Positions 31,317-33,962 of a stretch of DNA of 64,000 bases are shown here, piece by piece (the stretch's first letter is position 1; each line of letters starts with the position of its first letter). The stretch comes from Nitrospirota bacterium. GTDB lineage: Bacteria > Nitrospirota > Thermodesulfovibrionia > Thermodesulfovibrionales > JdFR-86. A model generated the notes under the pieces. It ran no database searches and was not told the origin of the DNA. It was given only the letters and a program-made list of their open reading frames with translations. The translations under genes were made by a program, and so were the position numbers. The stretch is taken from NCBI GenBank assembly GCA_963721805.1, contig CAVRJY010000002.1, positions 96,001-160,000 on the forward strand, written 5' to 3'.

Positions 31317-31997
31317 ATGCCCTCTGACCTGCTCTGGCTCTCGGCCCTGATGCTCGGCACCGGTCTCAGCGGCGGCTTCGGCCACTGCCTCGGGATGTGC
31401 GGCCCTATCGTTGTGACGTATGCCTCGGCATACCGCGTGGCTGGCATCCGGCCCCACGTACTCTACGGGCTCGGGCGCGTGACCACATACGCGCTGATGG
31501 GCGCTGCGGCAGGGCTCGCGGGCTCGCTCGTGCCCGTGGCCAGCCCGGCCGCCCAGCGCTGGGTGATGGCCGGGGCCGGGGCGCTCGTAGTGCTGATGGG
31601 GCTCGGGATGGCCGGGCGTGGGCCGGTGCTCAGGGTGCTCGAGCGCGTTGGGCTGGGCATCGGATTCATCAGGCGCGCCGGAGCTTTCTTCGGCGCTGGG
31701 CTCACGGCCGGGGCGTACTATCCGCTTGGGGTGGTGATGGGCTTCATACCCTGCGGGCTCGTATACACCGCGCTTGTGGCCTCGGCTCGCGCCTCGATGG
31801 ATGCGGCGCCGCCGGCCGCCGTGGCGCGCGGGATGGTGCTGATGGCCGCGTTCGGCGCGGGCACGATGCCGGGTATGGTGCTCGCCGGGCGGGCCTCGGC
31901 CCTGATCGGCACGCGCATGCGCGGCGCGCTCACGGCCGTAGGCGCGGCCCTGATGGTCGCGGCCGGGGTGATGTTCATCATAAGGGCTCTCCGGTAG
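31317..31997 (+). CDS. DsbD_2 / sulfite-exporter-like membrane protein (cco-associated)
   Basis: GHCLGMCGP, GRVTTY, GFIPCGLVY, FGAGT. Confidence 0.85.
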   Translation: MPSDLLWLSALMLGTGLSGGFGHCLGMCGPIVVTYASAYRVAGIRPHVLYGLGRVTTYALMGAAAGLAGSLVPVASPAAQRWVMAGAGALVVLMGLGMAGRGPVLRVLERVGLGIGFIRRAGAFFGAGLTAGAYYPLGVVMGFIPCGLVYTALVASARASMDAAPPAAVARGMVLMAAFGAGTMPGMVLAGRASALIGTRMRGALTAVGAALMVAAGVMFIIRALR

Positions 31998-32073: not shown

Positions 32074-32160
32074 GCCGAAGTGGTGGAACTGGCAGACACG
32101 CCAGGTTCAGGGTCTGGTGAGGGTAACCTTGTGGGGGTTCGAATCCCCCCTTCGGCACCA
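32074..32160 (+). tRNA. tRNA-Leu(CAG)
   Basis: GCCGAAG acceptor stem, anticodon loop TT-CAG-GG, long variable arm, GGTTCGAATCC T-loop, encoded CCA. Confidence 0.95.
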
Positions 32161-32181
32161 ACTTTATATCTTCCATATCGA

Positions 32182-32219
32182 GCCCCCATTGTGCCCCTCA
32201 TTCGGGGCGCAATGGGGGC
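32182..32219 (+). terminator. Hairpin downstream of the tRNA
   Basis: GCCCCCATTGTGCCCC-tcattc-GGGGCGCAATGGGGGC. Confidence 0.6.
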
Positions 32220-32308
32220 GCACAGCTCCTGCATCACAAACCATGCCGCCTGTTGACAAACCCTCCATATGGCGATAGCATTGCTATAAACGCACAAGGA
32301 GGCAGTCA

Positions 32309-33166
32309 ATGGGCGCAACTGATGACGCGGGTTCGGGCCTCACAAGGCGCAGGTTTCTGGGCACGACGCTAGGCATCGCGGCGGCGGGTACGGTATCAAT
32401 GCTTCTTCCCAACGCGATGGCAGCGGGCGGCGGTACGGAGCAGCCGAAACTCACGACCTACAACGGCTCGACCGACCCCTATCCGATCCCCTGGCTGGAC
32501 AAAAACGGCAGCCACAACCAGCCGGCCGGGCCGCACCTCGAGCCGTCGCACATCTTCCATTTCAAGGGGCGGGTCGCCCGCAACTCGGGCTTCGTCGGGA
32601 TGGGCACCGACAACGAGGGCAACCGCATACCGTTTGGGTCGCCGACGACCGATTACGGGTATATGCAGGGCGAGTACTGGGCCGCGCGCGCCCCGCAGCG
32701 AGGGACGTTCACCCATATATGACTCACGCTCTTTAAGGGGCAGGCTGCCCCTGCTAACCAGATCCACGATTTCCATCCCCCGATAGCGCCCTCAGGGCTC
32801 TACTGGGTAGTGCCGGTCCCGGAAGGCGGGCTCGTCATCAGCCCTGACGGCAGGACAGCTACGCTCCAGATGAAGGACGTGGCAGTCGTCGACCAGCCCA
32901 AATGGCCCGCGCTCGATGCGCTCGGCACCCCGGCTATAATGAGCTTCAAGATGGTATGGACCGCGACGGACGAAAAAGTCGTCTATGACGACCCGCAGAA
33001 GATGTTCCGTGTCGAGGGCTACCTCGCCAAGGCGCAGCTCGAGGCGCAGGTCGAGGTCCCATCGACCGGCTTCTCCTGGAAGTCCGATCCGCTGGCGAGC
33101 TCGAGTGCCAATTTCGCGGTCATCGGCGACGAGGTCAACGGGCGTTACTATACCCCGATGAAGTAA
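32309..33166 (+). CDS. Tat-exported protein with an in-frame TGA at codon 138 (candidate selenoprotein, 285 aa)
   Basis: TRRRFL twin-arginine signal; ORFs 32309-32722 and 32810-33166 share a frame and are joined by 29 sense codons after the TGA. Confidence 0.7.
32736..32752 (+). promoter_or_regulatory. Candidate bacterial SECIS hairpin
   Basis: AGGGGCA-GGC-TGCCCCT stem starts 13 nt after the TGA (32720-32722); G-containing apical loop. Confidence 0.55.
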
Positions 33167-33211: not shown

Positions 33212-33962
33212 ATGGCCGGAAACAGGAAGATATCCGAGCTCCCGCGCTCAAGCAGCGGGGACGTGGTCTTCAGCGCCCATGGGCTGACGAAGACATACCA
33301 CATGGGCGAGGTCGACGTGCTGGCCCTGCGCGGCGTGGACGCGGACGTATACGCCGGGGAGTTCATGGTCCTGCTGGGGCCCTCGGGCTCGGGCAAATCC
33401 ACGTTTCTAAACATACTGGGCGGCCTCGACACCGCGACCGGCGGCCAGGTGCTATACAAGGGCTGGGACATCACGCACGCCACCGAGCGCGAGCTGACCG
33501 AGTACCGCCGCCACCACGTGGGGTTCGTCTTTCAGTTTTACAACCTCATCCCCAGCCTGAGCGCGCTCGAAAACGTATCGGTCGTGACCGAGATCGTACA
33601 AAGCCCGATGAAGCCGCAAGACGCGCTCGCCCTGGTCGGGCTCGCGCGAGCGGCTCAACCACTTTCCGTCGCAGCTCTCGGGCGGGGAGCAGCAGCGCGT
33701 CGCCATAGCCCGCGCCATAGCCAAAAACCCCGCCGTGTTGCTCTGTGACGAGCCTACAGGCGCGCTGGACTCCGAGACCGGCGTGCTCGTGCTCGAGGCC
33801 CTGCACACGATCAACCGCGACCTCGGCACGACGACGGTCGTCATCACCCATAACGTCGATATCGGCTCGATCGCCGACAGGGTCGTCAGGCTCAGCGGCG
33901 GGCTCATCGCCGAGATCCGCAAGAACCCCGCCAAGAAGTCCCCGAGCGAGCTTCACTGGTAG
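33212..33962 (+). CDS. ABC transporter ATP-binding protein (LolD/MacB-like), frameshift at about 33645
   Basis: [31 protein letters not shown] and [11 protein letters not shown] in a shifted frame. Confidence 0.9.

Follow-up and report, generated by a model that had tools for sequence, protein, structure and literature searches.

One gene in place of two annotated reading frames

The 64,000-nucleotide (nt) stretch of DNA analysed here, called the window throughout, comes from contig CAVRJY010000002.1 of a Nitrospirota bacterium. At positions 32309 to 33166 of its forward strand we read one gene of 285 codons and a TAA terminator, interrupted by a single in-frame TGA at 32720-32722. An earlier note, made from the letters alone, had proposed that two hypothetical open reading frames (ORFs) sharing one frame form a new selenoprotein gene. 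The frame bears this out: ...GTFTHI is followed by the TGA, by 29 sense codons (32723-32809) and by the second ORF, which starts with GTG at 32810 and ends with TAA at 33164-33166. We put the probability that this is a genuine selenocysteine (Sec)-encoding gene of a large family at about 0.9, and take it and its relatives to form a true selenoprotein family that had gone unrecognised and relies on the usual bacterial mechanism of Sec insertion.

Most particulars of the earlier description were found again. On translation, the joined product has 285 amino acids (aa) and carries the TRRRFL motif of a twin-arginine translocation (Tat) signal. The second ORF, said to have no clear ribosome-binding site, shows by eye no Shine-Dalgarno-like sequence upstream, and the stem-loop AGGGGCA-GGC-TGCCCCT begins 13 nt past the UGA, at 32736-32752. 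As described, a tRNA-Leu gene, here identified as tRNA-Leu(CAG), lies upstream, and an ABC transporter cluster with an ABC ATPase and a MacB/FtsX permease lies downstream. "Cys-free" holds for the window copy, which has no Cys, and fails for the family, in which position 92 is Cys in 150/161 homologous loci; "His-rich" was overstated, the protein having 7 His among 285 residues. Promoter-type sites number 2 in the region versus 0.3 expected from shuffles, and the one entered in Table 1 is a consensus match only, hence a candidate.

Table 1. Features of the Sec-encoding gene and its surroundings, in window coordinates.
Feature	Position	Strand	Remarks
Probable selenoprotein gene	32309..33166	+	At present called as ORFs of 137 aa and 118 aa
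Candidate sigma-70-like promoter, TTGACA-17 nt-TAGCAT	32253..32281	+	Between tRNA-Leu and the gene; 10/12 consensus matches
Shine-Dalgarno sequence AAGGAGG	32296..32302	+	6 nt ahead of the ATG at 32309; direct reading
Predicted Tat signal peptide	32309..32422	+	TRRRFL at residues 12-17, hydrophobic stretch, AMA at residues 36-38
UGA codon, residue 138, probably read as Sec	32720..32722	+	TGA conserved at the aligned column
Bacterial SECIS stem-loop	32736..32752	+	7-bp stem AGGGGCA/TGCCCCT, apical GGC at 32743-32745
DsbD_2 (PF13386) membrane protein	31317..31997		Just upstream
tRNA-Leu(CAG)	32074..32160		
Inverted repeat	32170..32222		Directly after tRNA-Leu(CAG)
ABC ATPase, split	33212..33962		ORFs 33212-33748 and 33735-33962

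The UGA is conserved and coding continues past it

Homologous loci were collected by two DNA scans. Among species-representative genomes we found 174 relatives, of which the best 80 loci were examined together with one locus of a genome related to the window's; the metagenome scan gave at least 573 relative contigs, of which the best 80 loci were examined. The resulting 161 loci encode 150 distinct proteins. At the column aligned with the window's UGA, TGA is present in 81/81 reference-genome loci and in 80/80 metagenome loci, with similarity on both sides, as the earlier note had anticipated for true homologs. Every one of the 161 loci has exactly one internal stop, five apparent second stops being natural terminators. 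The TGA is also kept in 5/5 matches in a sample of Acidobacteriota genomes, including one locus (L182) that belongs to a deeply diverged sister clade. Contig X1 from a public run covers the window's TGA with 0 differences, which answers the earlier call for a check of this codon in reads; the other public-run contigs over the stretch are relatives at 90-95%, and not every base is confirmed.

At codon positions 1, 2 and 3 past the TGA, non-consensus bases make up a share of 0.042, 0.086 and 0.336. Because this variability is concentrated at third positions, coding continues past the UGA. A peptide starting LTLF.G directly after the UGA is nearly invariant across the loci, and invariant residues stand on both sides of it. 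Judged from this comparison of homologous sequences, translation runs on through the UGA in the same frame. Protein databases hold the family largely in pieces: a search of predicted proteins gave 131 matches, and the 120 matches listed divide into 72 N-terminal fragments that end exactly at residue 137, 20 N-terminal fragments of other kinds, 9 C-terminal fragments and 19 proteins that run across the Sec column.

A covarying hairpin follows the UGA

Taken by itself, the hairpin at 32736-32752 has a minimum free energy (MFE) of -12.2 kcal/mol. Since the single sequence folds no better than its shuffles (z -0.33; 74/200 shuffles fold as well), the case for the hairpin rests on the comparison of homologs, made on an alignment of 82 sequences that reaches from 6 nt upstream of the TGA to 57 nt downstream. 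Stem pairs are formed in 93.1% of 640 cells, versus 33.8-53.1% with the 3' partner displaced by 1-3 columns. The paired share and the covariation score were reached by 0/500 shuffles; measures that count pairs or pair types are not above shuffles (335/500 and 500/500), as is to be expected of a stem with only eight pairs. Three stem pairs switch between pairing types, with GC in 45 and AU in 29 sequences, AU in 40, GC in 24 and GU in 8, and AU in 45 and CG in 31. Each switch joins an amino-acid change on one arm (Gln/Pro, Ala/Val or Lys-Gln/Arg) with a silent change at a third codon position on the other, and such coupled switches are therefore hard to account for by selection on the protein alone. 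RNAalifold independently predicts the same stem. The result was replicated on 56 distinct metagenome stretches that had not been used in defining the stem, with 92.9% of cells paired versus 41.7-49.1% in slid controls.

According to PMC13188914, the model of the bacterial Sec insertion sequence (bSECIS) comprises a loop of 3-9 nt, a stem of 4-16 bp, a G within the first two loop positions, a UGA-to-loop distance of 16-37 nt and an MFE <= -7.5 kcal/mol. With a 3-nt loop, a 7-8 bp stem, a spacing of 20 nt and -12.2 kcal/mol, the hairpin falls within the model on 4/4 criteria. The loop reads GGC, or AGGCU with a closing A-U pair; its G never varies and is followed by G or U. In the sister-clade locus L182, a different hairpin, UUGACC-AGUCU-GGUCAA, stands at the same offset from the TGA. 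The model comparison and the covariation in homologs agree, the earlier note having named a bSECIS search and a conserved 3' hairpin as checks, and on this comparative evidence the hairpin is a SECIS element.

Sec machinery accompanies the family

The window's genome (2.78 Mb, 9 contigs) encodes selA, selB, selD and tRNA-Sec (71 bits), all four over curated cut-offs. Its selD (G000:C1:1484881-1485801) holds an in-frame TGA of its own and is of the Sec type, and selA lies at C2:88985-90340, about 6 kb before the start of the window and about 38 kb from the selenoprotein gene. Further afield, 59/59 tested carriers have selA or selB, so that the expected Sec machinery was found both here and in the genomes of homologs. 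SelB scores over its cut-off in 5/5 carrier genomes and is found at E <= 1e-75 in 41/50 further carriers. All nine carriers without a selB match have selA (frameshifted in two), and 6/9 have the SelB-specific winged-helix domain; selB seems to be missing at the strict threshold because genes are fragmented in the assemblies of metagenome-assembled genomes (MAGs). SelA is present in 57/59 carriers, and both misses have selB.

As a background, 251 Acidobacteriota genomes were tallied, a set that includes three unpublished genomes; selB occurs in 194 of them and selA in 199. The comparison of selA in 57/59 carriers versus 194/246 non-carriers gives a one-sided Fisher p = 3.7e-4, with phyla mixed and related genomes counted as independent. 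We take the association of the family with selA to be real but modest. In the window, TGA terminates 19/46 long open frames and is therefore an ordinary stop in this genome.

Apart from these tallies, selA appears in adjacent pieces in different frames in G043, G323, G333, G328, G332, G335, G340 and G202. The broken selA loci in carrier MAGs are probably assembly indel errors.

Residues other than Sec at the column

Among database proteins that span the column, Trp is the commonest residue, with 17 proteins showing W. The ids recorded with W are P0002-P0011, P0013, P0119, P0124, P0134, P0170, P0252, P0254 and P0258, of which P0010 is elsewhere given as Gly. The earlier note had held that Trp in homologs would speak against its proposal. 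Trp is there on the surface, but in P0006 it stems from a TGA translated with another code: this protein agrees at every letter with four loci retrieved as DNA, on the sole condition that their TGA be read as W (code 4). All W forms that were looked up lie on contigs of 1.1-6.5 kb (JGI or Logan), and a member of the distant 'VWLDLF' clade, from genome G275, keeps TGA at the very position at which its relatives in databases show W. The W residues thus appear to be an artefact of gene calling with another code on short contigs, which is proved for P0006 and is what we infer for the rest. Such artefactual W may be a general trap when Sec candidates are judged from protein databases.

The remaining forms were read from database proteins, not from DNA. 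As the earlier note had expected, Cys homologs exist, namely P0012 (HLCLTIF; 10 cluster members, contigs up to 10.5 kb) and P0158, and they are rare, with two clusters among the 276 proteins gathered. Ser is found in P0122 (a 266-kb contig, sources including NCBI) and P0193, Gly in P0010 (a 675-kb contig) and Glu in P0123.

Two database proteins have unusual architectures. In P0234 (547 aa) the domain occurs twice in tandem, the aligned copy having Lys at the column, and P0117 (198 aa) joins a trypsin-like protease domain (PF13365) to family residues 79-137, ending at the Sec column. For either protein, a true fusion and a chimeric contig are both conceivable.

Export signal, conserved residues and predicted fold

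The twin-arginine motif is present in 156/161 loci; three of the others are cut by contig ends and two are without it. The signal scores below the cut-offs of TIGR01409 (14.7 bits versus 16.7) and PF10399 (12.2 versus 24), and its cleavage site, AMA at residues 36-38, was judged by eye. In the main clade, His69, His84, Asp154, His156 and Asp195 are unchanged in 161/161 loci, His136 and His153 in 160/161, and Glu275 and Asn277 in all 158 loci that cover them. Residues invariant across both clades are F85, G87, G97, G121, F134, L139, D195, G273, E275, N277 and G278; His153 is nearly invariant and His69 usually kept, and His84 is not kept across the two. Position 92 is Cys in 150/161 loci, Ser in 10 and Ala in 1. 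Because it is Asn in the window and Cys92 is absent from the sister clade, Cys92 cannot be a universal resolving cysteine.

Many Acidobacteriota members (L038, L041, L044 and others) have a second Cys, within R-A-S/T-C-Q, on a late strand around residue 242. Cys92 and this late-strand Cys could form a structural disulfide in the Acidobacteriota subclade; the window protein has neither.

An AlphaFold2 model built on a 33-row alignment has a mean predicted local distance difference test (pLDDT) score of 73.8. Residues 82-285 are predicted to be all-beta, mostly near 90, and the model divides the protein into a conserved Pro/His-rich N-terminal arm of about residues 45-84 and a beta-barrel of residues 85-280. 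Searches for relatives of this fold returned no Foldseek match in the PDB at E <= 0.001 and, by profile search of PDB sequences, nothing below E 0.17. A VIA wide structural search found small closed barrels with Z up to 9.1, for which the tool quotes a background best Z of 7-8. NspA (1p4t), OmpW (2f1t), AttH (2ich), fungal pericyclases (6kbc, 7dmo) and acetoacetate-decarboxylase-like proteins (4zbo, 3cmb) all superpose on model residues 80-280, with Z 9.1 to 5.7, a root-mean-square deviation of 4.1-5.9 A over 128-157 residues and 3-12% identity, which are background-level Z scores. The same holds for outer-membrane barrels of the OmpX/NspA/OmpW type, whose best Z of 9.1 is near the background of 7-8. 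The ESM Atlas, queried with the Cys homolog P0012, offered CIA30, DUF3047 and DUF6623, all with scores < 0.9 and taken as leads only.

From the model, the fold class is probably a closed antiparallel barrel, for which the searches above found no specific relative. By eye, its long strands alternate apolar and polar residues; the model suggests a soluble barrel with an apolar core and polar outward faces, not a membrane barrel. Two modelled strands span residues 128-142 and 151-156, which places Sec138 near the end of a barrel strand, and by strand register Sec138 should lie on the same face as His136 and His153.

Comparison with known selenoproteins

Pfam-A and NCBIfam 20.0 gave no match at E <= 1 beyond the sub-threshold Tat signal. 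A 2026 catalogue comprises 119 prokaryotic selenoprotein families, each with a Pfam, TIGRFAM, NCBIfam, CDD or PANTHER identifier, and in its 119-family Table 1 neither the motif H-I/L-U-L/F-T nor the architecture has a counterpart (PMC13188914); entries defined by CDD or PANTHER were compared through this table only. The earlier statements that the protein matches no recognised selenoprotein family and lacks the usual CxxU motif hold in this sense: there is no Pfam or NCBIfam model and no catalogue counterpart, and the protein is without CxxU or UxxC. By term search, the accessible text of PMC13188914, PMC12013277 and PMC9312934 mentions no Tat-exported or Cys-less families. Within the papers open to full-text search, nothing that describes the family was retrieved. 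Database names, where given, are 'hypothetical protein' for all matches listed except P0117, which is named S1-C serine protease because of its unrelated N-terminal domain.

Individual features have precedents. The periplasmic formate dehydrogenase of the FdnG/FdhA type is a Tat-exported selenoprotein, and selenoprotein A of glycine reductase, GrdA, has a Sec for which replacement by Cys is hardly known. As in FdnG/FdhA, the UGA would be recoded via a hairpin directly downstream and the protein bears a twin-arginine signal. The Sec of formate dehydrogenase does its work in the periplasm as ligand of a metal cofactor that is inserted before export; the enzyme differs in its size of about 1000 aa, its molybdo- or tungstopterin and Fe-S cofactors and its UHxP motif, whereas the present protein is a 285-aa predicted barrel with no detectable homology to it. 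Like GrdA, the family is dominated by Sec forms (TGA in 161/161 loci) and has few Cys forms. GrdA, in contrast, is a small cytoplasmic CxxU redox protein with a defined pathway, whereas the present protein would be exported and comes without pathway context. The catalogue lists formate dehydrogenase among its families, together with the predicted metal-binding selenoproteins MbdU, YHS-domain, CopZ-like and SO_0444 Cu/Zn efflux (PMC13188914). These four are earlier cases of a Sec presumed to bind metal in proteins without the thioredoxin fold; they differ in their CU, GxU, UxC or UxxU motifs and have NCBIfam or Pfam models of their own, none of which matches here.

Alternative readings of the UGA

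If the TGA were a genuine stop, the locus would be a pseudogene, a sequencing error or two separate small genes. ORF calling with table 11 does yield two ORFs, most database calls split the gene likewise, and other genes of the window are broken, for example the ABC ATPase at 33212-33962. Yet the same TGA stands in 161/161 loci from several phyla, the 29 codons past it are under coding constraint and highly conserved as protein, the second ORF has by eye no Shine-Dalgarno-like sequence ahead of it, full-length Cys, Ser and Gly forms occur on long contigs and contig X1 confirms the base calls, which together contradict a genuine stop and make it the least credible of the explanations. Decoding of the UGA as another residue (Trp, for instance), whether by read-through with a near-cognate or suppressor tRNA or under an alternative code, with a hairpin that is merely stimulatory, is also very improbable. 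The 17 database proteins with W would fit it, and selA and selB discriminate only moderately, Sec itself being deduced. The W of P0006 is a TGA under another code, however, and the W forms looked up sit on short contigs of 1.1-6.5 kb; on long contigs the replacements are Cys and Ser, with no TGG Trp among those seen. TGA ends 19/46 long frames in the window, the hairpin fits a SECIS of the SelB type in loop sequence and spacing, and 59/59 tested carriers have selA or selB. We regard the recoding step as well supported.

A selenoprotein gene could still belong to a family described elsewhere and not recognised here, the least implausible of the three alternatives and still an unlikely one. Our literature check was a search of open full texts and of the catalogue's main text, and a listing in a supplementary table or a primary paper is conceivable. 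All 119 catalogue entries carry domain identifiers (PMC13188914), whereas Pfam-A and NCBIfam 20.0 match nothing here beyond the Tat signal; the full-text searches gave nothing, and the names in databases are 'hypothetical protein' save for P0117. PMC12013277 states that its method may miss selenoproteins without Cys homologs, and methods that depend on Cys homologs are said there to miss families that have few of them.

Several observations weigh against the reading of the gene as a Sec-encoding member of a family with a Sec-centred active site. The unremarkable folding energy of the lone hairpin has been given above. SelA and selB discriminate weakly, since about 78% of the background phylum sample has them too, and the strict count of selB in 41/50 carriers equals the background level (194/251). 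Distant full-length relatives have Ser, Gly, Glu or Lys at the column, so that the superfamily does not depend on Sec throughout. The sister clade does not retain His136 and His156, which weakens a simple multi-His metal site. In the model, residues 1-81, including the conserved N-terminal arm, fall below pLDDT 50, and the proposed clustering of Sec138 with His residues comes from strand register only. The best neighbour candidate, DUF302, occurs in only 9/82 loci.

A possible selenolate-histidine centre

Under the preferred reading, in which the UGA encodes Sec, SelB with Sec-tRNA(Sec) would bind the hairpin at 32736-32752 and place selenocysteine at the UGA at 32720-32722. The product would be a 285-aa precursor whose twin-arginine signal takes the folded protein via Tat to the periplasm. 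The mature protein would consist of the N-terminal arm and a soluble beta-barrel, with Sec138 on the face of His136 and His153, and His69, His84, His156, Asp154, Asp195, Glu275 and Asn277 would have been conserved along with Sec138. The earlier note had gone further and called the product a metalloprotein, which the Tat signal and the invariant His, Asp and Glu residues render plausible at the sequence level. That a small protein bears a Tat signal and has such invariant residues about its selenolate is suggestive of a metal site filled ahead of export.

Our leading guess for the chemistry is accordingly framed as a Sec/His-ligated metal centre loaded before Tat export, to which we give slightly less than even odds. 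A metal-free redox or chalcogen-transfer centre is a somewhat less probable but serious contender, and some other chemistry is the least favoured of the three though far from negligible. A more specific proposal, which is possible and on balance doubtful, is that Sec138 with His69 and His153 (and, in the main clade, His84, His136 and His156) forms a new natural selenolate-histidine metal centre, borne by a soluble beta-barrel and assembled in the cytoplasm, in which Sec would be ancestral to the two deep clades and nearly irreplaceable by Cys. Assembly of such a centre in the cytoplasm would explain Tat export. If this were true, the protein would be the founding case of a family of metalloproteins, other than the molybdopterin and NiFe enzymes, in which Sec is obligate, and this family would be common in Acidobacteriota, Nitrospirota and Thermodesulfobacteriota of soil and sediment.

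The catalogued selenoproteome consists mostly of thioredoxin-like redox proteins found by Sec/Cys pairing. The present family, predicted to be exported, not thioredoxin-like and nearly without Cys forms, has the profile that published methods say they miss (PMC12013277). Databases hold it as hundreds of half-genes, with some full-length entries carrying an artefactual Trp. The family lends itself well to the question why Sec is so strictly kept in a presumably periplasmic protein of soil, peat and sediment organisms.

Family size and distribution

A profile search of 1.84 billion cluster representatives retrieved 1025 proteins (50% identity clusters) at E <= 0.001, most of them halves broken at the Sec column. 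Carriers belong in the majority to Acidobacteriota, and further to Nitrospirota, Syntrophales/Syntrophorhabdales and Verrucomicrobiota, with one Betaproteobacteria MAG and one Dormiibacterota MAG. The distribution is patchy, since only 5/251 Acidobacteriota genomes sampled and 1/40 relatives of the window's genome carry the family.

A quick tree was built from 50 rows, comprising the window, 30 of the 161 loci (<80% mutual identity, >=225 aa), 4 loci of the Acidobacteriota sample and 15 database proteins. It shows two clades, with 99% support in the Shimodaira-Hasegawa-like approximate likelihood ratio test (SH-aLRT), and DNA-verified Sec forms occur in both. The Cys, Ser, Gly and Glu forms are scattered long branches. 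The tree has no root and its long branches are not to be relied on; within these limits its topology fits an old Sec with occasional replacement. Members from different phyla are mixed together, a pattern that suggests horizontal transfer.

Genomic neighbourhood

Crude ORF calling and clustering of neighbours over 82 loci found an upstream DUF302 protein in 9/82, an ABC ATPase in 6/82 and all others in <=5, and thus no conserved gene partner among these loci. Because no neighbour is conserved, context gives no functional clue. The window's own neighbours, the DsbD_2 membrane protein, tRNA-Leu and the ABC/MacB transporter, are not common to the other loci.

The DsbD_2 protein just upstream contains GHCLGMCGP and another Cys. 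Members of the DsbD_2 family can pass reducing power across the membrane. Its position next to a presumably exported selenoprotein is suggestive, and the pairing is not shared by other loci.

On the other side of the gene, the ABC ATPase is split. Its first ORF covers the first 101/137 positions of the ABC_tran profile, and the second, overlapping it in another frame, holds the Walker B-like part; the break looks like a frameshift, whether in a pseudogene or through an assembly indel. Directly after tRNA-Leu(CAG) lies a long G+C-rich inverted repeat (GCCCCCATTGTGCCCC ... GGGGCGCAATGGGGGC) without a T-run. The terminator scan did not report this repeat, which may be a structure for tRNA 3' processing or termination.

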